NCBI GenBank assembly: GCA_039809385.1
Contig: JBDHUY010000002.1
Span: 1 to 64,000, forward strand
Direction: 5' to 3'
Source: Candidatus Altimarinota bacterium
Lineage (GTDB): Bacteria; Patescibacteriota; Gracilibacteria; JBDHUY01
Length of the DNA stretch: 64,000 bases
Position 1 is the first letter of the stretch; each line of letters starts with the position of its first letter. The position numbers and the translations under genes are program-made. The notes under the pieces were generated by a model. It saw only the letters and a list, made by a program, of their open reading frames with translations. It had not been told where the DNA came from and did no database searches. Below are positions 40,201 to 64,000 of this stretch, piece after piece.

Positions 40201-41202
40201 GCATATACGGCACTCTACACAGTGCTGGTGACTTTTTCCCAATTATTAGCGCCATTTGTGCCGTTTATTTCCGAGGAAATCTATCGCAGTCTGACGGGCG
40301 AGGATTCGGTACATCTCACCGATTGGCCGCAAGTAAATCGAAATCTGCTGAATGTCTCTCTCAATACCGAGATCGATCTGGTGCGGACGGTGGTGACACT
40401 GGGATTGTCGTTACGGGCCAAAAACAAGGCCAAGGTGCGCCAGCCTTTGAGCAAACTACAGGTTGTGGTACCTGAACATCTTCGTGGTGTTGTAACAGCC
40501 TATCATGATGTGATTGCCGAAGAGTTGAATGTGAAAGTGGTCGACTTGTTGCACGATTCGAGCGAGATCTCGGTCAAAATGATTAAGCCGATCGGGGCGC
40601 TGGTGGGACCGAAGTTTGGCAAAGACGCTCAAGCAGTGATTACCAATGCTAAGACTGGCAACTTCCGGGAAGCAAGCGGCCAGCGGTCAGCGATCAGTGA
40701 TCAGGAGGGGCCAGAAAAATCCCCTCTTGAGAGGGGTGGCCCGGAGGGCCGGGGTGTGAGCCTCGAAGGCACGAATGATTCTTCACAAGATACTTCTCGA
40801 AATCCCGGTTTGATCGTCTTTGACGGCCAAGGCAAGGAATGGGAGCTACTATCGAATGAATATGAAGTGGTCTACTCGGGTAAGGAGGGCTTTGACGCGG
40901 CCTCGAATCAAGGCGTGGTGGTCTCTCTGGATCTGCATGTTACCGAAGAACTGCGGCTGGAAGGGCTTGCCCGCGATCTGGTGCGCGCGATTCAGGATAT
41001 GCGCAAAGAGACCAACTATCAGGTTTCCGACCGTATTCGGATTTCTTTGCAAGGAGTTGATCCGCAGGTTTTGGCTCAATTTCAGGAGTATATTGTGAGT
41101 GAGACGCTGTGTTCGAAGTTGGAAGAAAAGTTGGAGAATCCGGATCTGGAAAGGGAGATTGAGCTGGAAGGGGAGAAGGTACTGGTAGGTATAAAGCGCT
41201 AG
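37249..41202 (+). CDS. ileS: Isoleucine--tRNA ligase (type 2) with inserted histidine phosphatase domain and repeat-derived insertions
   Basis: DGPPFATGLPHYGH, GWDCHGLP, WTTTPW, DWAISRNRYWG, EGQDQTRGWF, KMSKR. Confidence 0.97.
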   Translation: MFKPVNPKVSFSEIEKEILSYWKNNRIFERSIKQRTQKEFTFYDGPPFATGLPHYGHLLAGTLKDVIPRYWTMKGYRVERRFGWDCHGLPVENEKEKELGITGKKDIEAMGVGAFNEACRSIVQRYAGEWRQTVERTGRWVDMDNDYKTMDTSYMESIWWVFKQLWDKGYVYEGKKAMQICPRCVTPLSNFEVTQGYKDITDWSVIAKFPITDPDFLKKYGNGIKTSFIAWTTTPWSIPTTMGLAIGPDFDYVLVRTGEEQIIVAKNRLEYAVKSLEEGSWEVVEELKGKELTGLAYEHPYAFIYGQNEEVKNNANVYKTYATDYVSIEDGTGIVTINGAFGEIDMEAANRLELPIVINVKMDGTYTDDMGELAGHHVKPKEDPTKMDQKIAEDLESRGFLFRREKYLHSYPHCWRCDTPLLNYATTSWFVSVTKLKEKLLKNNDKTSWVPDNIKYGRFGKWLENARDWAISRNRYWGSVMPVWKCDSCEKVEVLGSLEDLRAKVPERMTKLILMRHGESETNVKTEVWSKDDRYPLTENGQKEIHTLAADLEHYDVMLVSPVLRARQSADILKQKYGTDYAVVEQLRENNMGTWEGLPAAEHLEQLKKYHELPLQERYQARMGGGENWVDIEARVSEFLKNTLSQYRGKTVAIVTHKSIIVTLHKQLSDWTLNRFFAIDEGAEWLNKSVIYVDNETGKEFDLHKHVVDEITFKCSPPDKGELEGGSHCSGTMRRIPEVLDCWFESGSMPYAQVHYPFENKEKFEQNFPADFIAEGQDQTRGWFYTLMVLSTALFDQPAFKNVIVNGVILAEDGKKMSKRLKNYPDPAYMLDTYGADAMRFYLMNSPAVQAQDLRFSEKGVDEVVKSILLPFWNAYSFFVTYANIDGWDSNGQRSVISKQQGKADSRQLTADSYDPQLFSNKLDQWILSELQATVELVTQRLDKYDLSGATEPLAAFIDGLTNWYIRRSRRRFWKSENDTDKNEAYTALYTVLVTFSQLLAPFVPFISEEIYRSLTGEDSVHLTDWPQVNRNLLNVSLNTEIDLVRTVVTLGLSLRAKNKAKVRQPLSKLQVVVPEHLRGVVTAYHDVIAEELNVKVVDLLHDSSEISVKMIKPIGALVGPKFGKDAQAVITNAKTGNFREASGQRSAISDQEGPEKSPLERGGPEGRGVSLEGTNDSSQDTSRNPGLIVFDGQGKEWELLSNEYEVVYSGKEGFDAASNQGVVVSLDLHVTEELRLEGLARDLVRAIQDMRKETNYQVSDRIRISLQGVDPQVLAQFQEYIVSETLCSKLEEKLENPDLEREIELEGEKVLVGIKR

Positions 41203-41214
41203 ATGGAGAATGCA

Positions 41215-41239
41215 GTCGTCCCGCCACGGCGGGGCGATT
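41215..41239. repeat. Short GC-rich palindrome CCCGCCACGGCGGG
   Basis: Hairpin just after the ileS stop. Confidence 0.5.
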
Positions 41240-41443
41240 TGCACGAAAAAAACTTTAACTTTTTTCTGCATTGTCGGAAGTATGTTTTCAAAATACGGTT
41301 CTCCGGTTTCCTAAATTGGTATGGTCTGTCTTTTTTGCTTCGTTCTAAGAAAGAGATTTTCCATCATTCAAAAAACGCATCATTCTGATTCTCAAAAGCT
41401 AAATCCGCAAGAGATCGAGTCGGACTATACATAATTATCCCAT

Positions 41444-41842
41444 ATGTTTTTCAAACTCTATGCCATAGCGTTTCCCATTTTCCTGGCTGTTGATATGATT
41501 TGGTTGGGATTTCTTGCCAAAGACTTGTATCGTCAACAGATCGGTTTCTTGATGAAAGGTGATATCAATTGGTTGGCGGTCATAATTTTTTACTTTTTGT
41601 TTATAGCGGGACTGGTGTTGTTTGTCATTCTGCCCGCATTTGAAAAACAATCATGGATCAACGCGCTGCTCTTTGGAGCGCTCTTTGGACTGGTAACCTA
41701 TGCTACCTATGATCTGACAAACCTCGCTGTGCTCAAAGACTGGCCCCTGCTGGTGACAATCGTTGACCTGGCGTGGGGAACGATACTCGCAGCTATTGTC
41801 TCAACTGCAACGTATTTTATTGCCGTAACTATCAGGTTATAA
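41444..41842 (+). CDS. DUF2177 family membrane protein
   Basis: DMIWLG, YATYDLTNLA...W...VDLAWG. Confidence 0.88.
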   Translation: MFFKLYAIAFPIFLAVDMIWLGFLAKDLYRQQIGFLMKGDINWLAVIIFYFLFIAGLVLFVILPAFEKQSWINALLFGALFGLVTYATYDLTNLAVLKDWPLLVTIVDLAWGTILAAIVSTATYFIAVTIRL

Positions 41843-41900
41843 AATCATACAACTATTGCTTCGGTTCTTCAAAACCAAAACCGATGCTGGTATAGGTATA

Positions 41901-42605
41901 CTAATTCATTTTGTATTCTTCCAACCACTTCCGTATAACTCGCGTATCAGGTATTCCACTTCGTACATTATAATATCGCAGCACCGGAACCCCTTCCTCA
42001 GCATTTGGCGGTTCATATTCTGTCATTGAGCGCACCAGGAGTGCTTCATTTCCCTCCCAGGTAATCATCAAAGGATTCGAGTGATCCCGTTGACGCAATC
42101 TCAGTCGTTGAAGAAGCATTGATTTCTTTGTATGTATTTCCAGAATCCGGATATCCGCCTCGTCTGAAAACTGTGCAATAATTTCACGACGGTAGATTTT
42201 TTTACCGTAAATCCCTTCCAAGATAACGCAGTATCCTTGTTCTAAAAGATCTTGAATGCGCAAATACATCAAATAATAGGTCGTATGGGTTTGTTGTGTA
42301 TCGAAGAGAATTACATTTTTGAAAAGTGCTTTGCGGATATTGTCAACTGATACATAGACAGCTGGAATATCCCCGATCAGTGCGCGGCTTACAGTGGATT
42401 TTCCAGAACCGGGAAGTCCGCAAACGATTAAAAAAAGAGGATTCTTACTCCTGCCGACGTCATCTGTAGGCGTAACTGCGCAGACTTTTTTCCACTCGGA
42501 TCTAGCCGGTTTTTTGTGCGAAAAGACACACCCGCAGAGCGATTTATGAATGTACACCATAGCATCCGGTACAATATGAAAATAAATAAACAACGTTTTT
42601 TGCAA
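41901..42605 (-). CDS. AAA_33-type P-loop kinase
   Basis: GLPGSGKST, D.IRK.L, VILEG, RL..R, EPP; start uncertain. Confidence 0.8.
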   Translation of the reverse strand: MQKTLFIYFHIVPDAMVYIHKSLCGCVFSHKKPARSEWKKVCAVTPTDDVGRSKNPLFLIVCGLPGSGKSTVSRALIGDIPAVYVSVDNIRKALFKNVILFDTQQTHTTYYLMYLRIQDLLEQGYCVILEGIYGKKIYRREIIAQFSDEADIRILEIHTKKSMLLQRLRLRQRDHSNPLMITWEGNEALLVRSMTEYEPPNAEEGVPVLRYYNVRSGIPDTRVIRKWLEEYKMN

Positions 42606-42847
42606 ACGTTCTTACAAATACGTATGAAAAGAAAAAACTCGATAGACAATATCAGGATAAATCACGACATTATTTCACAGTTACCAGTCCTATGCAATCA
42701 AATTTATCTCTTCGGCTGTTCCGTAGTAGCATACTTCAAGCTCGATCTTCAGATAACTTTCTGCTTAAAAAGCACGTCGGATATCTTGATAAAATCCACG
42801 GTTTCGGTATAACCGGAAATATCGAATAGTCTTTTTTCCGATATCCT

Positions 42848-43708
42848 ATGTCCGAACCGATTTCAAAATTTATTTTTACCACGTTTCGCGAACTCTTTGG
42901 ATTTATCAATCCTTTTTTATCGAACTATCATGATTTTTCAAAAAATCTTTCCCGCGAGATACGTGTCAAAGCACACAATAATATCCAGTATCAATTCGAC
43001 GTCGTTCTGGATAACATGATCAAAAAAAAATTAGACGACTTCGGTATAACGGGAAAAATATTCTCGGAAGAAAGCGGTTTTTTTCAAACCGGAAACCCTC
43101 TGTATCGCGTCGTGTTTGATCCTTTCTGCAACAGTTCACTGGCTTCCAGAACATTTCATGAAGCAGCCGTAGGTATAACTATCTTCAGCTATCAATACGA
43201 CTATATAACTTCTGCGATCATGGATTACCAGACCGGACTCGTGGCGTTGGTCGAAGACTCGGAAACCAACTTCTACCAGATCCAGACGGGTGAAAGGATT
43301 ACTCCGTCTCGGGAAGTGCCGCCCGCGGCGCTGAAAGATGCCTGGGTGGTCTTTACACTGGAAAACAGCGAAGAGCGCAAACATCTTTCGAAAGTTATTC
43401 CGCTTGTTCAATCTCCCAAAAGAATCATACTGAGCAGCGGACACATTTACTGGCTTAAACTGGCTCTGGGGGCGGTCGATGCCTACTTGGATCCTTTCGG
43501 CGGCGAACGTCTGTACGAGATGTTTGCCGCGACCGTGGCCCAGGCTGCGGGGTGTGTCGTCACCTCTATCTTCGGAGAACCATTTGATCCGGTTGTTTAT
43601 CTGAAGATTTTTGAGGCAAATCCGGATTTTATTTTTTATCCCGTAGCGGCAAGAAATAGACACCTGCACCGGCGTATATCTGACGGTCTTTTCTTGTCTA
43701 AAACATAA
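42848..43708 (+). CDS. Inositol monophosphatase/FBPase-superfamily protein
   Basis: FD, SEESG, DPFCNS, G.VDAYLD, AG.VVT..G. Confidence 0.75.
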   Translation: MSEPISKFIFTTFRELFGFINPFLSNYHDFSKNLSREIRVKAHNNIQYQFDVVLDNMIKKKLDDFGITGKIFSEESGFFQTGNPLYRVVFDPFCNSSLASRTFHEAAVGITIFSYQYDYITSAIMDYQTGLVALVEDSETNFYQIQTGERITPSREVPPAALKDAWVVFTLENSEERKHLSKVIPLVQSPKRIILSSGHIYWLKLALGAVDAYLDPFGGERLYEMFAATVAQAAGCVVTSIFGEPFDPVVYLKIFEANPDFIFYPVAARNRHLHRRISDGLFLSKT

Positions 43709-43724
43709 TCTTACTTCAAGTAGT

Positions 43725-44234
43725 ATGCAACTCTTCTCAAATATCTCTTCCCACGCAGAAGTGGAAGGAAAGAAGGTAATCACCGTTTGCGAGTCCAAAG
43801 TCACTGCCTTTCTATCCTACCTGGCCGGTTTCCTGGTATTTGCGGCTGTTGGGGCGATTACTATTCTGGTCTTGGTCGGAATGTTCCCGCCGCCAACGCT
43901 TTTTTCGGCTCTTCCTCCCCTTCTGCTCGGATTCATTCTGATCCGCTCGGCTAAAAAGCGCACTGCGCAGGGCGGGCATTTCGTGATCGACGGAGACCGT
44001 AAAAAGATTATCCAGAAACAAAAAAAGATCACCCGTGAGTGGGACTTCGACGACGTCGTTACTATAGACAAAGTGCTTAATATCTCCGACGGCATGCGGC
44101 CGCCGCACTTCGTTTTTTGGCTCAGGGCTACTATGTCCAACCATACCACATTGAATTTGGCCAAAGGCATAGAGAGCGAAGTAGTATCATTGCAGGAAGT
44201 ATTAGAAAAGATTGGCGTACATGAGAAAAAATAA
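43725..44234 (+). CDS. Hypothetical membrane protein
   Basis: Two TM helices plus beta-rich tail. Confidence 0.6.
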   Translation: MQLFSNISSHAEVEGKKVITVCESKVTAFLSYLAGFLVFAAVGAITILVLVGMFPPPTLFSALPPLLLGFILIRSAKKRTAQGGHFVIDGDRKKIIQKQKKITREWDFDDVVTIDKVLNISDGMRPPHFVFWLRATMSNHTTLNLAKGIESEVVSLQEVLEKIGVHEKK

Positions 44235-44308
44235 TCCAAACCGATTCCCGTCTAATGTAAACGGCAAATAGAGCAAAGTATCTATTCGGTCAAGCCTATA
44301 AATATCTC

Positions 44309-44734
44309 ATGCCTTTCACCGAATCCCGTTTGCGTTCCATTCTCAAAGCTGTTTCGTGGCGTGTCATTGCTACGCTTATCACGTTTTCCTATGCCTATCT
44401 GTTCACCGGACAATTCCCGGCAGCCGGTCTTATTACCGTTTTGGCTACACTCTTGAGTATGGTGCTTCATTATTATTTTGAACGGATCTGGAATGGCTTT
44501 TATTGGGATAAAGTCAATTTGCAGGAAACACGCAAACGTACGTTTTTAAAGAGTATTCTCTGGCAGCTGGTGGCTATCGGTATCAATTTGGGAACCTCTT
44601 GGTTTTTTACCGCCAGTTTGAATCAGTCGGTCTTCTTTGCCCTAGTCTCCGGTGCCACCGGCTTTGTCCTGTTTTACGTACACGAAAGACTCTGGAACGT
44701 TTTTTTGTGGCACAAAAAGTCGCTGTTTCGGTAA
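44309..44734 (+). CDS. Tandem DUF2061 membrane protein
   Basis: E...RS..KA.SWR...ERIWN repeated as ET..RT..KS..WQ...ERLWN. Confidence 0.85.
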   Translation: MPFTESRLRSILKAVSWRVIATLITFSYAYLFTGQFPAAGLITVLATLLSMVLHYYFERIWNGFYWDKVNLQETRKRTFLKSILWQLVAIGINLGTSWFFTASLNQSVFFALVSGATGFVLFYVHERLWNVFLWHKKSLFR

Positions 44735-44815
44735 GTTGTATAATCTTTTCTTTGTCGCTATACTTTCCTGACAAGACTCCCTTTATTATAATTTCCAATC
44801 CTTTCTTACGATTCC

Positions 44816-46198
44816 ATGCCTCTCAAAATTGAAAAAATAGTATACCCCGGCATTTCGCTCGCCCGCGACAACGGGCTTACCACGTTCCTCAATGGCGGTC
44901 TACCCGGTGAAGAAGTCGAGGTAGAGATCGTCAAAAAGAAAAAGAGTTTTCAGGAAGGGCGCGTATTGCGAGTTGTAGAGCCTTCCCCAGAACGTATCAC
45001 GCCCCGTTGTCCCTCCTTCGGTCGTTGCGGTGGTTGTTCGTTTCAGCATACCGCTTATGAAAATCAGCTTCGTATCAAGGACGAGTATGTCAGAGAATTG
45101 TTGCAAAACTTTTCTATACCCCAATTTTTACCAATTCTGCCGAGTCCCGAAATATGGAATTACCGCAATAAAATGGAGTTCAGTTTCTTCGAAACACCCT
45201 CCGGTCCCGCTGAAGCCAAAGGAGAGGTGACGATCGGGCTGCACGAAAAGGGAGCGTATAACCGCTACTTTCCGGTTCCCCCGTGTTTTATTGCCGATCA
45301 GGATTTTTTGAAGATCGTCGAAGAGATTCAGGCTTTTGCGCGGCGGTCGGGCTTGCAAGTTTACAATCCTACCACGCATCAAGGCTTTTATCGTCATTTG
45401 GTTTTGCGCAAAAGCAAACGGACCGGGCAAGTCCTGGTAAATCTGGTGACAACCCCCCTACACCCCCCTTATCAGGGGGGACAATCCAATACATCTTTTT
45501 TCGATGGTCTGGTTCAGGTTTTGAAAGACCATGTCTCTAGTTTTCACTGGACTGTTAACAATTCGGTGTCGGATGCGGTCAAGGCAGAAGAGGTACATCT
45601 GTTATCAGGTGAACCCATGATTCAAGAACAGATGCAGATAGGGGAACGTTTATACCGCTTTTTTGTTTCGCCTTTCTCTTTTTTTCAGACTAACACGTTT
45701 GGTGCTGAAAAATTATACGAAACAACCTTGAATTTTCTTGATCCAAAAGCGGACGACAAGGTGCTTGATCTCTATTGTGGAACAGGCACAATTGGTTTAA
45801 CGCTTGCTCCCTACGTAAAACAGGTTTTAGGGGTAGAGCAGGTTCCGGATGCGATTCTAGATGCCAAACGAAACAAGGAGATCAATGCGATTTCCAATAT
45901 CGATTTTGAAGTTGGCTCAGTCGAGAAGTGGATCAAGCATGGTACGATTCCCGAATTTAACGCGCTCGTGATTGATCCGCCCCGCGGCGGGGTTTCAAAT
46001 AAGGTTATTGATTTTATCCTCAGAACCAAACCTACTAAAATCGTTTATGTCTCCTGTAATCCTTCCACACTGGCCCGCGACTTGGCTCTTATACTTCGAG
46101 ACACTGATTATAAGATTGATCTGGTGCAGGCGGTGGATATGTTTCCCCAGACGTATCATGTGGAGGTGGTGGTGCGGTTGACAAGAATAAAAAAATAG
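44816..46198 (+). CDS. rlmD: 23S rRNA m5U1939 methyltransferase
   Basis: TRAM, C...CGGC, YRNKMEF, SFFQTN, DLYCGTG, DPPR.G, YVSCNP.TLARD, DMFP.T.HVE. Confidence 0.95.
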   Translation: MPLKIEKIVYPGISLARDNGLTTFLNGGLPGEEVEVEIVKKKKSFQEGRVLRVVEPSPERITPRCPSFGRCGGCSFQHTAYENQLRIKDEYVRELLQNFSIPQFLPILPSPEIWNYRNKMEFSFFETPSGPAEAKGEVTIGLHEKGAYNRYFPVPPCFIADQDFLKIVEEIQAFARRSGLQVYNPTTHQGFYRHLVLRKSKRTGQVLVNLVTTPLHPPYQGGQSNTSFFDGLVQVLKDHVSSFHWTVNNSVSDAVKAEEVHLLSGEPMIQEQMQIGERLYRFFVSPFSFFQTNTFGAEKLYETTLNFLDPKADDKVLDLYCGTGTIGLTLAPYVKQVLGVEQVPDAILDAKRNKEINAISNIDFEVGSVEKWIKHGTIPEFNALVIDPPRGGVSNKVIDFILRTKPTKIVYVSCNPSTLARDLALILRDTDYKIDLVQAVDMFPQTYHVEVVVRLTRIKK

Positions 46199-46313
46199 CT
46201 AGTATACAAATACTTTTTTGAGTGAATTACTCATGTAAATAAATCAAATTTGTCCCATACTTTGAAGAACTTTTTGCTCCAGATATGTATATTGTCTGAC
46301 TTTTAAATTCTGT

Positions 46314-47981: not shown

Positions 47982-48152
47982 CCCATGTACCAAACACATA
48001 AAAGCCCTATGCGGGATCATGTTTTCGAAACATGATCCTTTTATTTTCTTGATTGCTCCGATACCTCTTTTCTCAAGTTATTTCTCTCAAAACACATATT
48101 CTTCTCAGTCGCGAAATGGAATGGTTCCGTTTTTTTGGAAACCCGCAAAAAA

Positions 48153-51399: not shown

Positions 51400-51668
51400 A
51401 CAGTGAGAGAAATACATCTAAATCGGTTTATATTCTATGTCATATGGTATGGAAGCACAAGAAAGGCAGGATTTGATGTATAAATGATGAATGATTAATT
51501 ATGAATGGGGAAAAGGGACATCTTTGAAATCGGGAATATTACCCATGAATTTCTATTAATGCCCCTTACTTTCTACAAATTTCTTTGCTTCCATATTCTT
51601 CGTGCATGCAGTTGCTGTTTTTTGCCCTACGCTGTAAGCTGTAGGCTGTTAACTTCTTACTTTCCCTC

Positions 51669-52178: not shown

Positions 52179-52305
52179 CTGACAGCCGACAGCGGTCAGC
52201 TATCAGCAGTCTACAATTATTAATTATAAATGATGAATTATTAATCATGAATTTCGGAATACGAAAGACTTAATACATAATACTTCATACCTCCCTCCTG
52301 TCCCC

Positions 52306-56059: not shown

Positions 56060-56223
56060 AGAGTTGGGAGAGGGGAGATCGGAGTTAGGAGAAAGAGCAG
56101 GCGTACAGCTGACAGCGTACAGCTATCAGCAGCCTGTGGTCAGGTAAGACAAAATGAAATTACTTGTCCCCGTTCCCCCTGATAAGGCTTGCACTGAACG
56201 GAGTGAAGTGGGGCTAGGGGGTT
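56060..56223. repeat. Repeat stack ending in a nested CCCCCTGATAAGG element
   Basis: Purine heptamers, CAGCTGA heptamers, CCCCCTGATAAGG[CTTGCACTGAACGGAGTGAAGT]GGGGCTAGGGGGTT. Confidence 0.7.
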
Positions 56224-56291
56224 CAGGATTGCTCGTAATATTGCTTTGCTTCTAAACAAAAATCCCAAACCTAAATTCTTCTAAAAAAATA

Positions 56292-56515: not shown

Positions 56516-56659
56516 ATGACTTCTACCGCTACACAAAAAGCGAAACAATCAACCTCTGCACAACCAGTAAATCAACAGATCAATCAAAAAACAGAACTAG
56601 CAAAGAAGCAACCTAAACCGCGGTATAGAAACCGTCAATCCTACAATCGAAGGAAATAA
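56516..56659 (+). CDS. 47-aa basic small protein
   Basis: MTSTATQKAK...PKPRYRNRQSYNRRK; AAAGGA 9 nt upstream of ATG. Confidence 0.5.
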   Translation: MTSTATQKAKQSTSAQPVNQQINQKTELAKKQPKPRYRNRQSYNRRK

Positions 56660-57033
56660 AATAACCTTCATTCTCTTTCTCTCACCTCCACATCTCCCCA
56701 CAAAATCACCTCCAATCCGCTTCGGCCGGCCGTAACATACACGCCGGTCGAAGCACTCCACTCGTCTCCCATTTGCCAAAAATAATCGGATTGGTATTAT
56801 TCCCTATGGTTGTTTCTTTTTGATGTGGTATGACCAGCCAAGAATCATATGAGGCGGTTCTCTGTACTGACACGACGAAAGTTCCCATTCAACCGACTCC
56901 ATCGTCATTTTTTACTGTGAGCGATGGACTCGGGACAGTTTTTGGCACGGCTACGAGGAGGAAGGACTTGGAGAGACTTTTACAATCTTGTCAGAGTAAA
57001 ACAGGCGTTATTTTTATCGACTGAGTTATTTGC

Positions 57034-58185
57034 ATGAAAGAACAACAATCAGAACCTTTACGCGTTATCATTATTCAAATCATTGACCCCGCCGAGAACC
57101 GTTTTCAAGCTGAGCAGGAAGGAGCCGAACTGGTACGTCTGATAGACACCCTGCGCGGGATGGTCGTGGTCAAAATTTTACAAAAAAGAGGACGACCTTC
57201 CGCCAATATGTACTTAGGCAGCGGGAAAGCGCACGAAGTCGCCGGGCTCGCCAAACACCTGCGCGCCGATGTGGTCATCGCCAACGCGATGCTCAAACCA
57301 ACCCAGTTACACAATTTGAGACGCATTATTCCCGTACCAGTCTGGGATCGTGTCGACGTGATCCTGAAAATATTCGAACACCACGCCCAAACCCAGGAAG
57401 CCAAATGGCAGGTCGAACTGGCCCGTCTGAGGCACGAGTTTCCCCGACTGTACGGAAAAGGCATTGATCTGTCCCAGATCGTCGGCGGGAAAAAAGGGTA
57501 TACCCGCGGTCCGGGTGAAAAACTGCTGGAATTGCAAAAACGACACCTGCGGCGACGCATCGATACGCTGGAGAAAAAACTGGAGAATCTCAAAAAGGTC
57601 CGCGCAACCCAGCGCGAAGCGCGTACCCGCCAGAACTTTTTCAATGTGGCCATCGTCGGCTATACCAATGCCGGCAAAAGCTCCCTACTGGTAGCGCTCA
57701 CCAAAAAGAGAAACGTCTACGTCGCCGACGAACTGTTTGCGACGCTCGATACGCGTATCGGAACGTTGTATCTGGGCGACTGGCGCCAGAAGGTCATAGT
57801 GTCGGATACGATCGGTTTTTTACGTGCTCTCCCTCCGCACTTGATCTCTTCCTTTCTGGCAACGCTCGAAGAAGCCGTACAGGCTGACTTACTAGTACAT
57901 GTAGTGGATGCCAGCGATCCTGAAGCAATCGAAAAAGCCGAAGTGGTCGGACAAATTCTGGCGACCCTCGGGATAGGGGAGAAGCCGACGCTCTATGTGT
58001 TGAACAAAATCGATGTAGCTCATCCGGATCATCTGCAGTCGCTGCGAAACTTTTTTGTCGAACACAAATTATTTGCCGTCTCGACCCGTACGGGTGAAGG
58101 GCTGGAACCTTTGAAAGAAGAAATTCGCAAGATGGTTGAAAAACGGGATCAAAAGACTTTTTTGCTCAAGCCGGCTGTTTCATAA
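57034..58185 (+). CDS. hflX: GTPase HflX
   Basis: G.GK, RGPGE, GYTNAGKS, LFATLD, DTIGF, NKID. Confidence 0.96.
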   Translation: MKEQQSEPLRVIIIQIIDPAENRFQAEQEGAELVRLIDTLRGMVVVKILQKRGRPSANMYLGSGKAHEVAGLAKHLRADVVIANAMLKPTQLHNLRRIIPVPVWDRVDVILKIFEHHAQTQEAKWQVELARLRHEFPRLYGKGIDLSQIVGGKKGYTRGPGEKLLELQKRHLRRRIDTLEKKLENLKKVRATQREARTRQNFFNVAIVGYTNAGKSSLLVALTKKRNVYVADELFATLDTRIGTLYLGDWRQKVIVSDTIGFLRALPPHLISSFLATLEEAVQADLLVHVVDASDPEAIEKAEVVGQILATLGIGEKPTLYVLNKIDVAHPDHLQSLRNFFVEHKLFAVSTRTGEGLEPLKEEIRKMVEKRDQKTFLLKPAVS

Positions 58186-58330
58186 CAATATTCTTATACC
58201 ATTTCTAAATCGAACTGTTACAAAATTTGAGATATCAGTTTGAAATGGAATTGGTATTACTTGATCCTCTCACGAAGGTAGTTCGTTTTCTATTCGCGTA
58301 AACAGTGTGTGAATATCGTTACCTCATATT

Positions 58331-58373
58331 CTCCCTGATATTTCACTGAGTGAAATCGAAGTGGGACTAGGGG
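58331..58373. repeat. Second, degenerate copy of the nested element
   Basis: CTCCCTGATA[TTTCACTGAGTGAAATCGAAGT]GGGACTAGGGG. Confidence 0.6.
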
Positions 58374-58451
58374 CAAGACGCTTTCATATATCTTGTTTAT
58401 ATATTGCAACGCTGTATCCCGTCGTGGCAGGGAGAGATTTGTACTATTGAT

Positions 58452-59294
58452 TTAAAACAGGCCGACTACCAGATTCGTGATCAGATAGGCAGAGAGGGAT
58501 AGTACCAGACCGATCACGGCGTATAGCATACTTTTGCGGGCTTTCAGGATTTTTTCCTCGTCTCCGGCTGCCATAGCATAACTGACTCCGCCGTATACGA
58601 GGTAGATGCCGGTTAATCCGGCTACAAAAGAAAACAGACCTTTGGCGATATTACCGCTAATATCGCTGATCGACGTTTCGGTTTTTACCACACCGCCGGG
58701 AGCGTTATAGTCGTAGCGGTCTCCTTTTTCCAGAAAAGCGAAACTGCCCGGCGCTGGGCTGTTTTCAACGGCGAGACGTATAAATTCGGCTGCCGGGAGA
58801 GGATAGGTTTTATACGATTGCCCGGAATCGTCCAGCTCGTCGGTCCCGGATATTTCGCTTACTTTCAACGAACCGCTTTCATAGATGGTATTGATACTGG
58901 TAGCTTTGGGCTGATCTTTTACAATAAAATTCAACCGGGCCAAGTCCTGATCTTTGGGAACATCCATGCCATACAGCAATATGACCGTCGTACCTTCGGA
59001 TTGCCTGATTTGAGCGCTGTTTACCCCTGTTAATGGATGTATAGTAGGACTTTCCAGAAACTCAGGCCAGTTGGAAAGCGTCAGCTTGACTCCCTGGAGC
59101 GGACTTGTTTGACTAGCTCCTACGCTTTTGATAATGACGGTGACTGTATCGCCTGTTTTTATTGAATAAAAGGATTTGTCGGTTTCGATGCGTACTGGAT
59201 AACCAGAAGCAGTAAGCGTCCCCGCCAAAATCAGAGTAATATTTACCTGAAAAAACGTAATTCCTATAATGGCGAAGAGAATCAAACGTTTCAT
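58452..59294 (-). CDS. Cohesin-like domain + C-terminal pilin-like hairpin
   Basis: GDTVTV.I, LARL.F; YGGVSYAMAAGDEEKILKARKSMLYAVIG. Confidence 0.7.
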   Translation of the reverse strand: MKRLILFAIIGITFFQVNITLILAGTLTASGYPVRIETDKSFYSIKTGDTVTVIIKSVGASQTSPLQGVKLTLSNWPEFLESPTIHPLTGVNSAQIRQSEGTTVILLYGMDVPKDQDLARLNFIVKDQPKATSINTIYESGSLKVSEISGTDELDDSGQSYKTYPLPAAEFIRLAVENSPAPGSFAFLEKGDRYDYNAPGGVVKTETSISDISGNIAKGLFSFVAGLTGIYLVYGGVSYAMAAGDEEKILKARKSMLYAVIGLVLSLSAYLITNLVVGLF

Positions 59295-59297
59295 AGA

Positions 59298-60704
59298 TTA
59301 TTGCAACAGGCTGGTAATCGCTTGGACAATCAAGGTAGCGATAAGCGCCACCGAGAACCCGATGATCGTAAAAAGAAGTGTTTTTTTTGCTCGGGCGATT
59401 TTTATTTCGTCTCCCATGGCCAGCGCGAATTGCAACCCATCGACAATCACTGCCGGAATCAAGAGAAAACCGATCCAGGTCAGCAATGACCCGGCTAAAT
59501 TGTTACTGATTGCGGGAATGGACGTATCGGCATTGATTGGGGCTGCGCTGTGGTATTGGAAATTATCGCTGCTGTCGGGTAGTACCGTCAAGGGAAGGGG
59601 AGCGGAAGTCCCCTTCGAACTGTTCCTATTGGTATTGGCACTGGCAATCACATTGCTGTTCGTATTCTGTACGGGATTACTGTTATTTTGATTATCGGCA
59701 CAACTGCCGACCGCAGCGCTTACGGTCTTCGTTGTTTCTTTACCCGAGGCACTGTCTTTGACGGTCACCGTCGCAGTATAACTGCCAGGTGCGGAGTAGG
59801 TATGATTGGCCGTCTGACCAGTACCGTTTGTGCCGTCGCCAAAGTTCCAAGTATAGATCAGATTACAACTGCCGCTTATTTCAGCTATAGCCGAGAATGT
59901 ACGGGGAGTGGCGCGGCAGTCGTTGATCGATTGAACCTCGGCGGTCAGGCTGTCAAGCGAACACTCGACTCCTTTTACCAGCAAAGTCGTATAGCACGCG
60001 CTGACCGAAATACGATTATTTTTCCAGCAGTCCAGCACATAGGTATACGATCTGGCCGGCGTAAAAGGACCGAGCGTTTCGCTGCCATTGGCAGGTTTTG
60101 GATTCCCGTTGGGCCAAAACGGGGCACCGGTGCTGTCTGGAATTTCGCAACGGTCGGCATCCGAAATCCAGGAAATGGTACTGCCGCCTTTGTCCTCAAT
60201 TTGCCACGGTTCGAACGACATCGCGCACGTAACTCGCTCGGGGTTTGGCGAATCTGCCGCGAGATCTGCCGGAGAAAAATGAACATTCAGGAAATTTGCC
60301 AATGAGGCACTCTGATCAAAAGCCCCGAACGGCTTTATTTTACGAAGTTCGCGTAATGCAGCTTTGATTAGATCGTTGCTTTTGGCGTTTAACAAAATTC
60401 GATTACGTTCAAATGACGGACAATTATTCTGTGCGCATGAGATCAGATCCTGCAAAATACTGCGAGCGGCGCTATCGTTTAAAACCGCTTCGAGAGCCGT
60501 TTTAAATGCCTGGTTGGACGGTGCGGCCGGATCGAGACCCAAGCGTTGAAATATAATCTCAAGATATTGCTCATTACTTTGTCCGTATACATACGGAACC
60601 GCTTGCAGATTTTCAAAAGCAAACGAATGCAAAAGACCTATCCCGGGCAAAAGCAGACCGAGTAGTACGATGCGAACGAGGAGCTTTTTGCAAGATGCGG
60701 CCAT
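59298..60704 (-). CDS. PKD domain + C-terminal pilin-like hairpin
   Basis: YTWNFGDG...HTY..PG.YT.TVTV; GLQFALAMGDE.KIARAKK. Confidence 0.8.
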   Translation of the reverse strand: MAASCKKLLVRIVLLGLLLPGIGLLHSFAFENLQAVPYVYGQSNEQYLEIIFQRLGLDPAAPSNQAFKTALEAVLNDSAARSILQDLISCAQNNCPSFERNRILLNAKSNDLIKAALRELRKIKPFGAFDQSASLANFLNVHFSPADLAADSPNPERVTCAMSFEPWQIEDKGGSTISWISDADRCEIPDSTGAPFWPNGNPKPANGSETLGPFTPARSYTYVLDCWKNNRISVSACYTTLLVKGVECSLDSLTAEVQSINDCRATPRTFSAIAEISGSCNLIYTWNFGDGTNGTGQTANHTYSAPGSYTATVTVKDSASGKETTKTVSAAVGSCADNQNNSNPVQNTNSNVIASANTNRNSSKGTSAPLPLTVLPDSSDNFQYHSAAPINADTSIPAISNNLAGSLLTWIGFLLIPAVIVDGLQFALAMGDEIKIARAKKTLLFTIIGFSVALIATLIVQAITSLLQ

Positions 60705-60729
60705 ATTGAGAGTGTGTAAAAATCGTGAG

Positions 60730-61308
60730 TTATCCTTGAAAGAATCCGATAAACGTATTCATGATGACAAAAGCTCCGACCGAAACTCCCAGCCCCAGAA
60801 TAGAGTAGGTGAGTCCTTTTTTGGCTTTGTCGATCTTATCGCTGTCTCCGCGCGCGATCACATACTGATACGACGACATGATCAGCATGATCACTGCAAA
60901 ACCGCCAGCCATCGCCAGCAGAATATTGGTTGCATTCTTGATCGCATCCGGGAGCTGGGTAATCTTGACGACCTCGTTCTCTTTATCCAGATTTTCGGTT
61001 GTTTGCGAAATGAGACGCTGCAAGACTCCCGAAAACAAGACGATGGCGGTTGAAATGAGTGAACCGTTGACGATCTGTTTGGCCAGATCGACCCGGTCGT
61101 CGCTTCCGCCCGAAGCCATGTACATAAATCCTCCTACGACGATCATCATCACCGACAGCGCCAGAATCACGACGAAACCGAATCCCCATATTTTGGAGAT
61201 GAGTTCGCCAAAATCCTCAACCTGTCCCAGCTCGGTAGTTTCCTGAGCAAAGGCGAGGGAGGGGAAGCAGGCCAGAATCGCGATCATCGGAAGAAGCGCT
61301 TTTCGCAT
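60730..61308 (-). CDS. Tandem two-unit pilin-like protein
   Basis: GGFMYMASGG.DDRV..AK and YQYVIARGD.DKIDKAKK. Confidence 0.8.
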   Translation of the reverse strand: MRKALLPMIAILACFPSLAFAQETTELGQVEDFGELISKIWGFGFVVILALSVMMIVVGGFMYMASGGSDDRVDLAKQIVNGSLISTAIVLFSGVLQRLISQTTENLDKENEVVKITQLPDAIKNATNILLAMAGGFAVIMLIMSSYQYVIARGDSDKIDKAKKGLTYSILGLGVSVGAFVIMNTFIGFFQG

Positions 61309-61351
61309 GGAGGAGAGATTGAAGAATCAAGAATTGAGAATAAAGTTTCTT

Positions 61352-64000
61352 TTATTGCGAAGTATTTTCGACTGTTACTTGGCTGTTTTTACGCGCATTC
61401 GTCATTTTATCCGCAGGAGCCGTTGTCCCGGTATCGGGAGCGGGGACAGATTCATCGGTTAGTCGAGTATCGGGTGCTTTTTCGGCTGGGGATGGCGTGG
61501 TTGTTCCTGCTAAACGATCATCAGCGGGAGTCTCCTCTTGAGAAGGCATAGCATTCTCGGGAGAATTGTTATTGGTTTGAGCCACAGCCTCTATTTCTTG
61601 CGGTGTTCCGAAACTCTCAACTTTTGTAAACGTAAACTTTTCTTTGATTACATCGCAAAATACTTTGTCGTTGTTCACAAATCTGCTGCCTAAGATCAGA
61701 TCGGAGAGCGGCGTATCGATCATCTGCTGAATCACGCGTTTAAGAGGTCTCGCTCCGAATTGCGGATCATAGCCCAGGTCGGCCAATTTGGCCTTGGCAG
61801 CGTCGCTTAGCTGAAGCAGTATCTCGTTTTCTTTCAAATTTTGAACCGTTTCGCGCATCATCACGTCGACGATGCTCATGATGTCTTTTTTCTGCAGCGG
61901 TTCGAACACGATCAGCTCATCAAACCGATTGATCATTTCAGGCCGCAGAAACTGTTTCAGATCTTCGATCAAGTCTTTCTTAAGCGATTCTATGAAAGCT
62001 TTTTTACGCAAATCTTCTGCCGGTTCCGTAGCAGTACCTTGTTGCGCTTCCGTCGTTGAAGCACTTTGTTCGGAAGAGCTATTTTCAGCCGAAGCAAAGA
62101 GCATAAGATCGGTCTCTTTTTCTTCAATAACCGCAGGGAGGTTCAGGTTGCGAGTGAGAAGAGGGGAGTCTGGAGAGAATGTATCTGGTATCTGGTATTT
62201 AGTATCTGGGATATTCTGGTCAGAACCCGGAGTTGAGAGTTGGTTGCTGGCTGGTTGATTCTTCGTGCCTTCAAGTTCCACACCCCGCTCCGACGCTGCG
62301 GTCGGAGCACCCCTCTCGAGAGGGGATGCTTCAGGCTGTGAGCTGTTGGCTTCCTGCTGACCGCTGTTTGAAGCATAGAATTCCATCATTTTCTCCTGAA
62401 TCTTGGTAGACCCCACGTTGCTGGTACAAATGATGATCGTATTTTTGAAACTGGCGACCCGGCCTTTGCTGTCGGTCAGTCGACCGTCGTCGAACATTTG
62501 TAAAAACAGATTGAAGATGTCTTTGTGGGCTTTTTCGATCTCGTCGAACAGTACGACCGAAAAAGGGTGTTTGCGCACCGCTTCGGTAAGTTGTCCTCCC
62601 TCTTCGTAACCGACATATCCGGGCGGTGCTCCGACAAGCCGAAAGTAAGAGTGTTTCTCCATATATTCGCTCATGTCAAAACGGATCATGGCGTCCTCGG
62701 TTCCGAAAAGATATTCGGCCAGCGTCTTGGCTAGTTCGGTTTTTCCGACGCCGGTAGGGCCCATGAACAGAAACGTTCCGATCGGTTTGTTAGCCTTTTT
62801 CAAACCTGCTCGGCCACGCCGAATCGCCTGTGAAACCAGTTTTACTGCTTCATCTTGTCCGATCAAGCGCTTATGCAAGTAATCTTCCATCTTGAGCAAC
62901 CGCTCACTTTCGGATTCGCGGATATGCCGTAACGGAATTCCTGTCCATTTCGAGATAATTTCGCGTAACGTATCTTTTTGGATGGTATCGTGCTGTTTGG
63001 CCTTTTCTTGTTCGACTTCTTCTTTGGTCTCGTCCAGAACTTTTTGCTGCTGCTCTATCTGTCCGCTCAGTTTTTCGATCTCTTCGGTCAAGTTGTTGCG
63101 CTTGGCCGATTCCAGCTGTTTGTTGAGTAGTTCGATTTTTGCTTCCAGCGCTTGAATTTTACGCGGAGCCGAAAAAGAGGGGAGACGGGTGGCCGCGCCC
63201 GCTTCGTCGATCAGATCGATCGTTTTGTCGGGCTGAAAGCGGTCAGCGATATAACGACTGCTGAGTTTGATAGCTTCGACCAACACGTCGTCGGGAATCA
63301 TGACCCGATGATACGCTTCGTATTTGTCGCGCAGACCTTTGACGATCTCCAGCGTTTCGTCGAATCCTGGTTCGGGCACGACTACCGGCTGAAAACGACG
63401 TTCCAGGGCAGCGTCTTTTTCGATATATTTATGATATTCGTTTGTCGTGGTGGCTCCGATACACTGAATTTCGCCGCGTGCCAGCACGGGTTTTAAAATA
63501 TTGGCGGTATCGTTATTGCTATCTGATGAGATCAGTGTGTGAATTTCGTCGATAAATAGTATTACTTCGCCGTTGGTAGCTTTGGTCTCTTTGAGAATAT
63601 TTTGCAACCGTTCTTCGAATTCGCCGCGCTTACTCGCTCCGGCTAGCAAGGAATTAAACGACAATCCGACGATGCGTTTTCCTTTCAGAATATCGGGAAT
63701 ATCGCCGGTAACCATGCGATAGGCGAGACCTTCGACAATGGCGGTTTTTCCGACTCCGGCTTCGCCGACCAGTACGGGGTTGTTTTTGCGCCGGCGCGAC
63801 AGAATCTGTAAAACGCGTTCGATCTCGTCGCCGCGGCCGATTACGGGATCGAGCTTGCCTTCGCGGGCCCGGTTACTGAGGTCTTCGCCGAATTTGTCGA
63901 GCAGGGGGGTGGAAACCTGGATTGTGCCGACCTCCTCTTTGCCTTTCCCGACGATTTCCAGCACCGCGTTCACGGCATTTTCATACAAAACACCGAAGCG
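61352..64000 (-). CDS. ATP-dependent Clp chaperone ClpB/ClpC (5' end beyond the window)
   Basis: [42 protein letters not shown]. Confidence 0.95.

Follow-up and report, generated by a model that had tools for sequence, protein, structure and literature searches.

The stretch analyzed here (the window) comprises 64,000 nt of G000, a gene-dense genome of 1.87 Mb in a 26-contig metagenome-type assembly. It encodes an isoleucyl-tRNA synthetase (IleRS), which contains an inserted histidine-phosphatase domain (Pfam His_Phos_1); a tRNA/rRNA (uracil-5)-methyltransferase-like protein; and a ClpB/ClpC-type ATPase, whose frame continues past the window to approximately G000:C2:64441 and encodes 1029 aa in full (Table 1).

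ileS and clp share a module of about 60 nt that is read in the same frame in both genes and differs in its inner hairpin, and the strings quoted in the original prediction lie at the places it gave. In ileS (40675-40775, plus strand) the string is CAGCGGTCAGC .. ATCCCCTCTTGAGAGGGGTG GCCCGGAGGGC CGGGGTGTG AGCCTCGAAGGCACGAA, and in clp (62263-62366, minus strand) it is CAGCGGTCAGC .. ATCCCCTCTCGAGAGGGGTG CTCCGACCGCAGCGTCGGAG CGGGGTGTG GAACTTGAAGGCACGAA. Across the 158 columns of a pairwise alignment of the two stretches, mean column identity was 77%, and the four named blocks did not differ. The palindrome CCCCTCTYGAGAGGGG, allowing up to two mismatches, occurs at two places in the window (four matches over both strands), compared to a mean of 0.01 in the shuffled window; none of 100 shuffles reached four. 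Both copies lie within long ORFs in one common register, with the ileS module translated as KSPLERGGPEGRGVSLEGTN and the clp module as a 23-letter peptide of the ATPase. In this type-1 module, a short loop joins the pyrimidine arm CCCCTCT to the purine arm AGAGGGG; next come a GC mini-hairpin, which varies, and a tail, GGGGTGT, in which the purine arm is mirrored. In G000, the module adds a family-specific segment of about 20 nt ending in GAAGGCACGAA; in the ileS copy, the genome-specific tail ..CTCGAAGGCACGAA comes after the mirror tail.

Table 1. Genes, inserts, and repeat features in the window
Feature	Position	Strand	Basis
ileS, 1338-aa isoleucyl-tRNA synthetase	37186..41202	+	Pfam tRNA-synt_1, His_Phos_1, Anticodon_1, DUF5915
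Type-2 module in ileS (CTCCCCCTGATAAGGGGGAG TT GGAGGGGGGT), read PPDKGELEGG	39395..39426	+	motif scan
Heptamer-array insert in IleRS (CAGCNNN units), ..GQRSVISKQQGKADSRQLTADS..	39917..39992	+	repeat families D3, D4, D6
Whole ileS insert, ~45 aa, ASGQRSAISDQEGPEKSPLERGGPEGRGVSLEGTNDSSQDTSRNP	40672..40806	+	orthologue alignments
AGCGGTC x3.3 tandem array	40675..40697	+	TRF
Type-1 module, ileS copy	40716..40777	+	nhmmer E=3e-16
ileS module: hairpin 1	40721-40736	+	sequence
ileS module: inner hairpin GCCCGGAGGGC	40739-40749	+	sequence
ileS module: mirror tail CGGGGTGTG	40750-40758	+	sequence
460-aa tRNA/rRNA (uracil-5)-methyltransferase-like ORF	44816..46198	+	Pfam tRNA_U5-meth_tr
Type-2 module in methyltransferase ORF (CCCCCCTGATAAGGGGGG TGTA GGGGGGT on - strand)	45452..45480	-	motif scan
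clp, ClpB/ClpC-type double AAA+ ATPase	61352..64000	-	Pfam AAA, AAA_lid_9, AAA_2, ClpB_D2-small
Clp insert in NBD2, residues 548-655 of P0002	62024..62347	-	orthologue alignment, AlphaFold2
CAGATAC array (GTATCTG x4.1 on + strand), within clp insert	62181..62209	-	TRF
Type-1 module, clp copy	62261..62329	-	nhmmer E=1e-13
clp module: hairpin 1	62310-62325	-	sequence
clp module: inner hairpin CTCCGACCGCAGCGTCGGAG		-	sequence
clp module: mirror tail CGGGGTGTG	62279-62287	-	sequence

ileS contains three repeat-derived inserts. The insert with the type-1 module was placed by computing its coordinates from residues 1163-1207 of IleRS (P0001). A module of a second type sits between the two cysteines of the IleRS KC..C knuckle and is missing from relatives G017, G036, and G013 in the alignment. 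The third is a heptamer array, which includes a TRF array at 39961-39988 and is likewise missing from the aligned IleRS of relatives. In Clp, the NBD2 insert that had been put at 130 aa is present but measures approximately 110-125 aa: orthologue matches end at query residues 531-547 and restart at 658-671. The ileS and clp inserts are both absent from the aligned orthologues. AlphaFold2 gave pLDDT below 50 at Clp residues 548-655 and 80-90 in the flanks, and the insert is thus predicted to lack structure, although low pLDDT is the default for an unaligned insert and hence weak evidence. The module appears to add extra loops to essential proteins.

The host genes are more numerous than originally claimed. 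Using nhmmer, we found nine type-1 copies in G000, four of them in frame in the conserved proteins IleRS, Clp, LepA, and a UvrD-like helicase. The type-2 module is in frame in IleRS, the TrmA-like methyltransferase, and a phosphoketolase; in the methyltransferase ORF it is read antisense, as TPLHPPYQG. The inner hairpin differs from copy to copy, as noted originally; the ileS and lepA copies share one. All four type-1 copies within ORFs read SPLERG..RG. The description of the module as frame-preserving was not borne out as a property of the element, as four to five of the six frames are open in each copy. Selection after insertion or gene-to-gene copying can therefore explain the shared frame, which remains only partly explained.

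The CAGCGGTCAGC prefix and the CAGATAC units, originally taken as parts of the module, belong instead to a separate and abundant family of period-7 tandem arrays. TRF detected 265 such arrays in the genome, where CAGCGGTCAGC occurs 11 times. The CAGATAC heptamers in clp are real and form a TRF array, whereas the "CTCCCC-type heptamers" proposed alongside them are not a TRF tandem array; that sequence, at 62151-62185, belongs, with 63% identity, to a loosely defined G/A-rich repeat family. A heptamer array lies within 100 nt of 11 of the 23 modules, compared to 2.3 for random placements. CAGCGGT and CAGATAC thus represent a tandem-repeat family that is distinct from the module and lies near modules more often than expected by chance.

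The prediction of a multi-part dispersed repeat held well beyond G000. Across many phyla, GTDB species genomes contain at least 120 stretches with a 20-nt core of the module, compared to about two by our own random-sequence estimate. The GGGGTRTG tail was present in 74 of the 86 copies examined, which contained 54 distinct inner segments. In 271 of 587 hairpin-orientations, the tail was a perfect mirror of the purine arm of its own hairpin; the mirrors of other arms matched in 7.5%, and the direct arm in 99 of 587. This rule was true for 26 of 34 arm types, and G000 contains 22 mirror-type motifs, compared to one when the sequence is read backwards. By analogy with TM_ECO motifs, single strands of the module may fold into a triplex.

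Intrastrand triplex motifs were reportedly the subject of earlier work by Maher and colleagues. The core architecture of what had been proposed as an undescribed element is already known, as it is that of the BoxC/PIT/TM_ECO intrastrand triplex motifs found in E. coli and further bacteria (Holder et al., 2015, PMC4666352). As described there, those motifs also consist of a C-rich pyrimidine arm, a loop, a purine arm, a loop, and a mirroring second purine-rich arm (class II C-G-G); like the present module, they occur in multiple copies, are strongly conserved, and have a patchy distribution among relatives. Differences lie in the second loop, which here carries an extra GC hairpin and spans 11-20 nt rather than the 1-6 nt of the TM definition, and in the tail, which has T opposite A. 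Roughly half of the present copies are inside ORFs, whereas that account describes TM_ECO as "always located intergenically" (PMC4666352).

The originally proposed search for a nuclease flanked by the palindrome was positive. On contig C6, four other type-1 copies bracket two DUF559 genes as inverted terminal repeats; the genes encode 126-aa proteins that are 87% identical (Pfam DUF559, E=1e-33; PDB 3hrl, E=2e-20); the right-hand module overlaps the 3′ end of the ORF. A third DUF559 gene, on contig C3, is flanked on both sides by a type-2 module of its own. The order module(+), DUF559, module(-) also occurs in deltaproteobacterial, Chitinophaga, and Lacunisphaera MAGs, and most of 13 DUF559 copies in five genomes of other phyla are arranged in this way. 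Among 30 DUF559 loci of the window's class, 15 shared an exact match of at least 10 nt between the upstream and the reverse-complemented downstream flank, compared to 2 of 29 in a far-flank control. Nine of the ten DUF559 genes with type-1 flanks fell in a single clade (support 96/96) that spans phyla, and flank type changed three times on the tree, compared to 9.3 times in shuffles, with none of 500 shuffles as low. As only 3 of 80 cross-phylum module loci contain a DUF559 gene, most copies stand alone, and the link to the enzyme rests on the nuclease-flanking minority.

Although the present motif flanks DUF559 genes as inverted terminal repeats, Holder et al. report finding no mobile-element link for TM motifs; we saw no mention of DUF559 in that paper, and "endonuclease" has no occurrences in its main text (PMC4666352). 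In E. coli, a TM_ECO motif lies approximately 170 nt downstream of ycjD, which encodes a DUF559 protein. TM copies number 1-12 in the nine chromosomes that lack ycjD and 17-28 in the six that have it, such that BoxC copy number fully separates these 15 related chromosomes by the presence of ycjD. E. coli O157:H7 has 12 copies, though it lacks ycjD. The association may stem from one or two events in the history of these lineages.

We lean, with moderate confidence, toward a selfish system of nuclease and repeat in which solo ends survive in protein loops that tolerate them, much as Rickettsia palindromic elements (RPEs) do. The repeat in ileS and clp would belong among DNA elements of the "intrastrand triplex motif" type and serve, here and in other phyla, as the inverted terminal repeats of small genes for DUF559, a Vsr-like PD-(D/E)XK nuclease. 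The organization would resemble that of REP/RAYT or IS/MITE, with solo ends dispersed in the genome. DUF559 may cut or mobilize the repeat, and solo copies could have arisen through transposition. Some copies would have landed in an open frame, in surface loops at which conserved proteins tolerate insertion, and then persisted, presumably being translated and tolerated as Pro/Gly/Arg/Glu-rich loops that are probably disordered. The CAGCNNN and CAGATAC heptamers represent another tandem-repeat family, one that accumulates at module sites. DUF559 is not known to be a transposase. The original term "mobile module" fits in that the repeat is dispersed, but mobility itself was not borne out: all contigs covering the ileS site have the insert, a metagenome scan for an empty-site allele returned only relatives of at most 45% identity, and no consistent target-site duplication was seen at five solo copies.

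Alternatively, whole DUF559 units may have entered ileS, clp, lepA, and the helicase gene in frame, followed by deletions that removed the ORF and one end, so that solo modules are relics rather than independently mobile units. We consider this explanation unlikely but worth serious weight. In other genomes, whole DUF559 units do lie in frame in conserved genes, with modules at both junctions: in riboflavin synthase (L042), a radical-SAM protein (L044), LeuRS (L170), and an Lhr helicase (L171). Solo copies also have about 20 nt beyond the triplex core in common with the C6 element ends. However, tblastn revealed no DUF559 remnant beside any solo copy, and recombination between inverted ends inverts a segment and does not delete it. 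Moreover, solo copies far exceed nuclease-linked ones (77 of the 80 cross-phylum loci lack DUF559), and tandem and short convergent module pairs occur without any ORF.

Somewhat less probable again is structure-driven instability with no dedicated enzyme, in which triplex or hairpin repeats stall replication and spread among "repeat islands" by template switching or gene conversion, with DUF559 genes merely gathering repeats or using them as terminators or insulators. TM motifs are described as tied to locally rearranged E. coli loci and not to transposons, phages, or plasmids (PMC4666352). Site-to-site copying would give the identical inner hairpin of ileS and lepA, and the excess of tandem arrays near modules points the same way, as does the antisense module, which ends as a hairpin followed by a T run. 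This explanation leaves unaccounted for the nuclease clade that tracks repeat type across phyla, the overlap of the right-hand repeat with the conserved DUF559 3′ end in distant phyla, and the identity of the 20-nt core across phyla.

We regard as very improbable that the insert is missing from the mature product, either through intron- or intein-like removal at the RNA or protein level or because the interrupted genes are non-functional. Nothing direct favors it, although the terminal inverted repeats of whole DUF559 units could pair in some other genomes. Frames are open through every insert, an Rfam search gave no family match, and the in-frame units show no Pfam family beyond host-gene and nuclease-related ones; scans made for other ends showed no second copy of ileS, clp, or lepA, and purine-motif triplexes are reported not to form in RNA (PMC4666352). 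Finally, although repeats in such metagenome-type assemblies are known places of misassembly, an artefact or chimeric join, an objection raised originally, was tested and can be dismissed: contigs from another sample (X3, 820 nt, 40547-41366) and another study (X6, 251 nt, 40722-40972) cross the ileS module and junction with no differences, no contig of other samples over this module has a joint that skips the insert, and the ileS and clp frames are intact.

A selfish nuclease-plus-repeat system would have partial parallels elsewhere. In-frame palindromic inserts had already been described: RPEs are likewise short palindromic repeats that lie in frame in unrelated housekeeping genes, adding a peptide while keeping the ORF (PMC10969869). 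As described there, RPEs are approximately 150 bp long, have a conserved peptide, are found in Rickettsia only, and have no known partner nuclease; by these descriptions, the ~60-nt, triplex-type, DUF559-linked module of many phyla is set apart. For the enzyme, a "VSR, DUF559, DUF2726" clade has been described (PMC3424549), as has the repair nuclease VsrA (PMC12907096). The DUF559 copies here share this clade with Vsr/VsrA and the Vsr-fold homing endonuclease I-Bth0305I (PMC3424549). As one member is a homing endonuclease, selfish use of the Vsr fold has precedent; unlike I-Bth0305I, the DUF559 copies here have no group I intron. Inteins with homing endonuclease domains are selfish nuclease-coding units in frame inside conserved, often essential proteins. 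The in-frame DUF559 units in aminoacyl-tRNA synthetases and helicases resemble them, but are bounded by DNA repeats and show no splicing motif.

REP/REPIN-RAYT systems similarly place a small enzyme gene within inverted short structured repeats (REP/REPIN, PMC3116915). The enzyme here is a Vsr-like nuclease, whereas RAYT is a Y1 HUH transposase, and the repeat combines a hairpin with a mirror tail, whereas REP is a plain hairpin. REP/REPIN repeats are also dispersed in the genome as solo or paired copies. A RAYT-like gene is also present in G000, separate from the DUF559 genes and associated with hairpin repeats of a different kind.

The original prediction held that a single composite repeat module is inserted in frame in both IleRS and the ClpB/C-type ATPase. 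A direct sequence check placed both of the strings on which it rested within ileS and clp, and the two copies of the repeat, a ~60-nt sequence that we call the type-1 module, align over 158 columns with 77% mean column identity. The identical blocks are CAGCGGTCAGC, ATCCCCTCT(T/C)GAGAGGGGTG, CGGGGTGTG, and GAAGGCACGAA. As predicted, the inner hairpins between the second and third blocks differ, with GCCCGGAGGGC in ileS and CTCCGACCGCAGCGTCGGAG in clp. The window holds two occurrences of the 16-nt palindrome, compared to 0.01 expected from shuffles. By Pfam, the host ORFs encode a 1338-aa IleRS and a ClpB/C-type ATPase whose frame extends past the window; both copies are read in the same register, giving KSPLERGGPEGRGVSLEGTN in IleRS and a 23-residue counterpart in Clp. 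The ileS insert is not an assembly artefact, since contigs from a second sample and a separate study run through the ileS copy with no mismatch, and none contains a joint that skips the insert. We found no allele lacking the insert among the sequencing-run reads examined. A metagenome search with the IleRS C terminus returned four loci at 35-45% identity, none of them a close relative in which an empty site could be sought.

The module extends beyond these two genes. A profile search identified nine type-1 copies in the genome (1.87 Mb, 26 contigs, 46% G+C; genomes of relatives span 0.7-2.0 Mb), and the four that lie within ORFs all read SPLERG..RG. A proteome search with IleRS residues 1166-1206 matched only IleRS itself among four candidates, proteins of 735-2342 aa that share 5-residue words, and so carries little weight. 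The 20-nt core, ATCCCCTCTYGAGAGGGGTG, was detected in none of the 40 relatives searched and so was confined, within this set, to the window's own genome. With four to five of six frames free of stops in every in-ORF copy, stop codons do not by themselves dictate the common frame, and we ruled them out as its full cause. When the module is antisense to a gene, a hairpin followed by a U run would stand in the message, and sense copies may be favoured for this reason. The common frame could also stem from copying between genes, as the ileS and lepA copies carry an identical inner hairpin. A second triplex-type repeat with a short second loop, the type-2 module, is also dispersed, with in-ORF cases in IleRS, the UvrD-like helicase, a phosphoketolase, and a TrmA-like methyltransferase.

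Coordinates of modules, nuclease units, and other repeats. Positions without a prefix are those of the window, which is C2:1-64000; C-numbers are contigs of the same genome, and L-numbers are loci of other genomes.
Feature	Location	Remarks
Type-1 module in ileS	40716-40777 (+)	
Type-1 module in clp	62261-62329 (-)	
Type-1 module in lepA		G domain
Type-1 module in UvrD-like helicase-nuclease		
Type-1 module	C1	One copy, outside long ORFs
Type-1 modules	C6	Four copies
DUF559 unit	C6:31354-31839	Terminal inverted repeats
DUF559 unit	C6:32659-33154	Terminal inverted repeats
Heptamer-coded insert in IleRS	39917-39992	Missing in G017, G036, G013, the relatives covering the region
Type-2 module in IleRS	39395-39426	Between two cysteines of a KC..C knuckle; missing in G017, G036, G013
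Type-2 module in TrmA-like methyltransferase gene	45452-45480	
Period-7 arrays of the window, including	28-55, 148-166, 11061-11087, 11909-11940, 39961-39988, 40675-40697, 52215-52253, 56101-56123, 62181-62209	
A/T-rich direct repeats, 40-64 nt	211-274, 10103-10166, 11142-11205, 11875-11938, 51545-51583	AATTTCTNCAAAYTTC..TATATTCTTGATTC; intergenic; unrelated to module
DUF559 in riboflavin synthase	L042	Same frame, with two lumazine-binding domains (Pfam)
DUF559 in radical-SAM protein	L044	Same frame (Pfam)
DUF559 in LeuRS	L170	Between catalytic and editing domains (Pfam)
DUF559 in Lhr helicase	L171	Between DEAD and Helicase_C (Pfam)

IleRS and Clp have orthologues, at 42-53% identity, in five relatives that belong to its family or class, and the matches to them are interrupted exactly at the inserts. 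The module-bearing insert of IleRS, which is ~45 aa long (window ~40672-40806), is missing in four relatives (G001, G017, G036, and G013). The Clp NBD2 insert is likewise extra sequence relative to orthologues, but the alignment gives it ~110-125 aa instead of the predicted ~130. AlphaFold2, run with a 5-row alignment, assigned Clp residues 548-655 a pLDDT below 50 between confidently folded flanks; this is weak evidence, since unaligned inserts score low by default. We found no consistent direct repeat at five solo copies, a weak test for target-site duplication because the element boundaries are uncertain. A palindromic repeat inserted in frame within conserved ORFs is the trait of the Rickettsia palindromic element (RPE), as far as the accessible description goes the closest precedent for such inserts (PMC10969869). 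Compared with that description, the module is shorter (~60 nt versus ~150 bp) and its host range is different.

The architecture of the module is that of a known kind of repeat. In both window copies, the pyrimidine arm CCCCTCT and the complementary purine arm AGAGGGG form a hairpin, and the GGGGTGT tail mirrors the purine arm, with T opposite A. Across all the sequence analysed, 271 of 587 hairpin-orientations are followed within 45 nt by a tail that perfectly mirrors their own purine arm; the ceiling is ~50%, because each hairpin was entered in both orientations. For comparison, other arms of equal A count had their mirrors in 7.5%, and the direct, unmirrored arm was present in 99 of 587. 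The mirror rule was seen in 26 of 34 arm types, and the genome contains 22 mirror-type motifs, compared to one when the sequence is read backwards. The main text of Holder et al. (2015; PMC4666352) defines the intrastrand triplex motif by these three parts, pyrimidine arm, purine arm, and mirrored purine arm, and the class includes BoxC/PIT/TM_ECO of E. coli. The same text describes folding of TM_ECO in vitro as a class II C-G-G triplex, demonstrated by CD/NMR, and reports TM_ECO as always intergenic, without a detected association with mobile elements, and as a marker of unstable loci; according to its introduction, RNA does not form purine-motif triplexes (PMC4666352). Loops were 1-6 nt in the ITxF search and N3-6 and N3 in TM_ECO, according to that text. 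The type-2 modules, whose second loop is CTA or TT, fall within this short-loop class, whereas the second loop of the window copies, TG plus an 11- or 20-nt hairpin plus C, is longer. Thus, of the prediction that this is an undescribed element system, the kind of repeat was already described; the long hairpin-bearing second loop, the in-frame intragenic copies, and the DUF559 link detailed below go beyond the main text of PMC4666352. The module sequence was not found in open-access papers. Rfam yielded no family at the gathering score in the window and none at E ≤ 1 at the module in eight cross-phylum loci, which rules out a described RNA family as its identity.

The predicted composite nature of the module was borne out only in that repeats do adjoin; what meets at these spots is two repeat systems, the triplex-type module and heptamer arrays. 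Tandem repeats of the genome most often have period 7, with 265 non-overlapping arrays of many different units; 60 of these fall within frames of 200 aa or more, and CAGCGGTCAGC by itself is present 11 times. The arrays recall the short tandemly repeated heptamers of cyanobacteria. An array lies within 100 nt of 11 of 23 modules, compared to 2.3 on average, and never more than 9, when placements were randomised 1000 times. Such clustering is in keeping with the instability described near triplex motifs.

We consider a selfish system of nuclease plus repeat, at slightly better than even confidence, the most likely reading of the type-1 modules. The prediction had called for a nuclease or transposase flanked by the palindrome, and such a nuclease exists: the copies on contig C6 form two inverted pairs, each enclosing a 126-aa ORF. 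The two ORFs, which are 87% identical and placed either side of sufC, belong to DUF559 (PF04480; 115.9 bits versus a Pfam gathering cut-off of 20.6) and match a solved "endonuclease-like protein" (PDB 3hrl, E = 2.2e-20). The left repeat stops just 5′ of the start codon, and the right repeat overlaps the final codons. No known transposase was found as partner; the enclosed ORF is of the Vsr-like DUF559 nuclease family, which is not a transposase family. PMC3424549 assigns DUF559 to the Vsr clade of PD-(D/E)XK nucleases, among whose members is a homing endonuclease of a group I intron. Contig C3 carries a third DUF559 gene, which is 41% identical and has the other module type at both ends (CCCCCTGATAAGGGGG CTA GGGGGT).

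Past the conserved core, a further ~20 nt (..GAAGGCACGAA) are common to the C6 ends and the solo copies in ileS, clp, and lepA, so that these solo copies are members of the same element family. A model in which solo modules are relics of whole DUF559 units would give them this origin, and the ileS and clp copies are single ends, not inverted pairs. Using tblastn (E ≤ 10), we detected no DUF559 remnant beside the solo copies, and we regard this model as unlikely. Judged by eye, the right flank of the ileS copy has some likeness to a DUF559 start, but this was unconvincing and was dropped. Weak tblastn matches to DUF559 (40%, 25 aa, E 3-10) were present at C4:143-337, C15:39126-39191, C5:126168-126233, and C25:18511-18576; the recurrence of one and the same match at these four contig ends points to an unresolved repeat at which the assembly broke.

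Outside this genome, genomes that represent other species contain the 20-nt core in at least 120 stretches; hosts among the matches listed are Verrucomicrobiota, Bacteroidota (including cultured Mucilaginibacter and Aliifodinibius), Gemmatimonadota, Cloacimonadota, Aminicenantes, Planctomycetota, Nitrospirae, Chlamydiota, several candidate phyla, and one archaeal MAG. In 80 loci of these matches, the GGGGTRTG tail is present in 74 of 86 copies, which contain 54 different inner segments, mostly small GC hairpins. Copies are arranged as solo, tandem, divergent, or short convergent (MITE-like) elements, and 11 of the 86 have 60 aa or more of open frame to either side, including antisense copies in very long Aminicenantes ORFs. 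In one Aminicenantes MAG, CS4-C025 (L077, L078, L091, and L094), type-1 modules are antisense and in frame (HTPPFGHPSQEG), with 329-1084 aa open on one side and 460-2324 aa on the other. Viral contigs gave a single match for the module and no sign of phage carriage.

DUF559 genes were present in only three of the 80 cross-phylum loci, in a deltaproteobacterial, a Chitinophaga, and a Lacunisphaera MAG. In all three (L074, L056, and L054), the order is module (+), DUF559, and module (-) overlapping the ORF end, as on C6. Most of 13 DUF559 copies from five genomes of other phyla are enclosed by inverted modules of the same grammar. Within the window's class, DUF559 is found in 55 of 121 genomes; comparing the upstream flank with the reverse-complemented downstream flank, we found an exact match of at least 10 nt at 15 of 30 loci, versus two of 29 for flanks farther out. 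Ten of the 45 DUF559 domains placed on a tree have type-1 flanks, and nine of these group in a single clade (support 96/96) whose members come from the window's organism, Deltaproteobacteria, Bacteroidota, and Verrucomicrobiota; the copy on C3 is placed elsewhere. Flank type changes three times on the tree, compared to 9.3 in shuffles, and none of 500 shuffles was as low. Since type-1 flanks track one cross-phylum DUF559 clade, nuclease and repeat were inherited, and apparently transferred, together. DUF559 matches in some class relatives (e.g., G078, G029, G088, and G046) contain one to six in-frame TGA codons and no other stops. In-frame TGA also occurs inside conserved genes of several class relatives, suggesting that TGA is read as sense in those organisms; the window's own genome has no need of it. 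Taken with the genome sizes of the relatives, the TGA codons in conserved genes suggest a class of the candidate-phyla-radiation type.

Entire nuclease units also occur in frame. Several DUF559 matches fall within very long open frames, and DUF559 lies directly upstream of, and in frame with, MiaA, HemF, HisF, and an LTD protein. The junctions of these units are modules, which are nearly free of stop codons because they are C/T- or G/A-rich.

E. coli allows a comparison within one species. ycjD is the only DUF559 gene of K-12, and a perfect TM_ECO match lies ~170 nt downstream (NC_000913.3:1351000-1351800, L169), with a partial duplicate of the ycjD 3′ end in between. ycjD is present in 3378 of 5426 complete E. 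coli genomes, and a 47-nt TM_ECO query matched 1-29 places per genome (median 16). We compared 15 chromosomes, 14 chosen by TM_ECO copy number alone and one (H6) that was in both listings. ycjD was scored with a ycjD DNA query; a PF04480 family search missed even the annotated ycjD control, and its negative was discarded. The nine chromosomes lacking ycjD contain 1, 2, 2, 3, 4, 4, 6, 10, and 12 TM_ECO copies and the six with ycjD contain 17, 21, 22, 23, 26, and 28, a complete separation that may reflect few independent events, as the strains are related to one another. TM_ECO copies persist in chromosomes lacking ycjD. For the type-1 modules, a spread driven by repeat structure with no enzyme is an explanation that we consider somewhat less likely still than the relic model.

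To our knowledge, BoxC/PIT/TM repeats, known since the 1990s, are without a function or a mechanism of spread, and DUF559, a very large family of Vsr-like nucleases, is without a role. These two orphans may explain each other. Extending the selfish nuclease-plus-repeat reading, we tentatively propose, as a possibility of somewhat less than even likelihood, that DUF559 is the partner nuclease of BoxC/PIT/TM-type repeats throughout bacteria. A Vsr-like nuclease gene and the putatively triplex-forming inverted repeats that bound it would then constitute a distinct class of selfish element that spreads across phyla, seeds solo repeats, and places units in frame in essential genes (aaRS, helicases, Clp, and LepA) as an unspliced domain or loop. 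If true, both the 30-year-old orphan repeat BoxC and a large orphan family, E. coli YcjD included, would gain a function. Because inverted repeats bracket DUF559, nuclease clade matches repeat type across phyla, and BoxC copy number is split by ycjD, the link is directly testable by E. coli genetics and simple biochemistry. In open-access full text, we found no report tying DUF559 or YcjD to these repeats, and no title or abstract opening on DUF559 concerned mobility or repeats. The in-frame copies extend the RPE phenomenon to free-living and candidate-phyla bacteria, with repeats in aminoacyl-tRNA synthetases, Clp, LepA, and helicases and, elsewhere, whole nuclease units. They would be a tangible origin for loops that set single lineages apart in proteins otherwise conserved, and they call for caution in annotation and alignment-based phylogenomics of small genomes.

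For the organisation of gene plus repeat, the closest precedent is REP/RAYT, as outlined in the portion of PMC3116915 consulted. A Y1 (HUH) transposase with module flanks is absent from the genome. Its sole Y1_Tnp-like ORF (216 aa, C2:~139916-140566, L187:1318-1968) scores a borderline 22.7 bits and has several copies of a different hairpin, GGTTCCAAGTTGYACTTGGAACC, on both sides; this looks like a separate REP/RAYT-type system.

IleRS and Clp have other notable features. The Clp C terminus carries a low-complexity tail of ~85 aa rich in Pro/Thr/Ala/Glu (residues 794-878, window 61352-61609) that is missing in relatives and predicted to be unstructured. IleRS residues 533-700 (window ~38782-39288) form a complete His_Phos_1 histidine-phosphatase domain inside the catalytic body. 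The IleRS frames of class relatives are equally long (1244-1415 aa), and in the G001 protein a second His_Phos_1 domain appears, from the alignment, to be present at the site that the type-2 module occupies in the window's genome.
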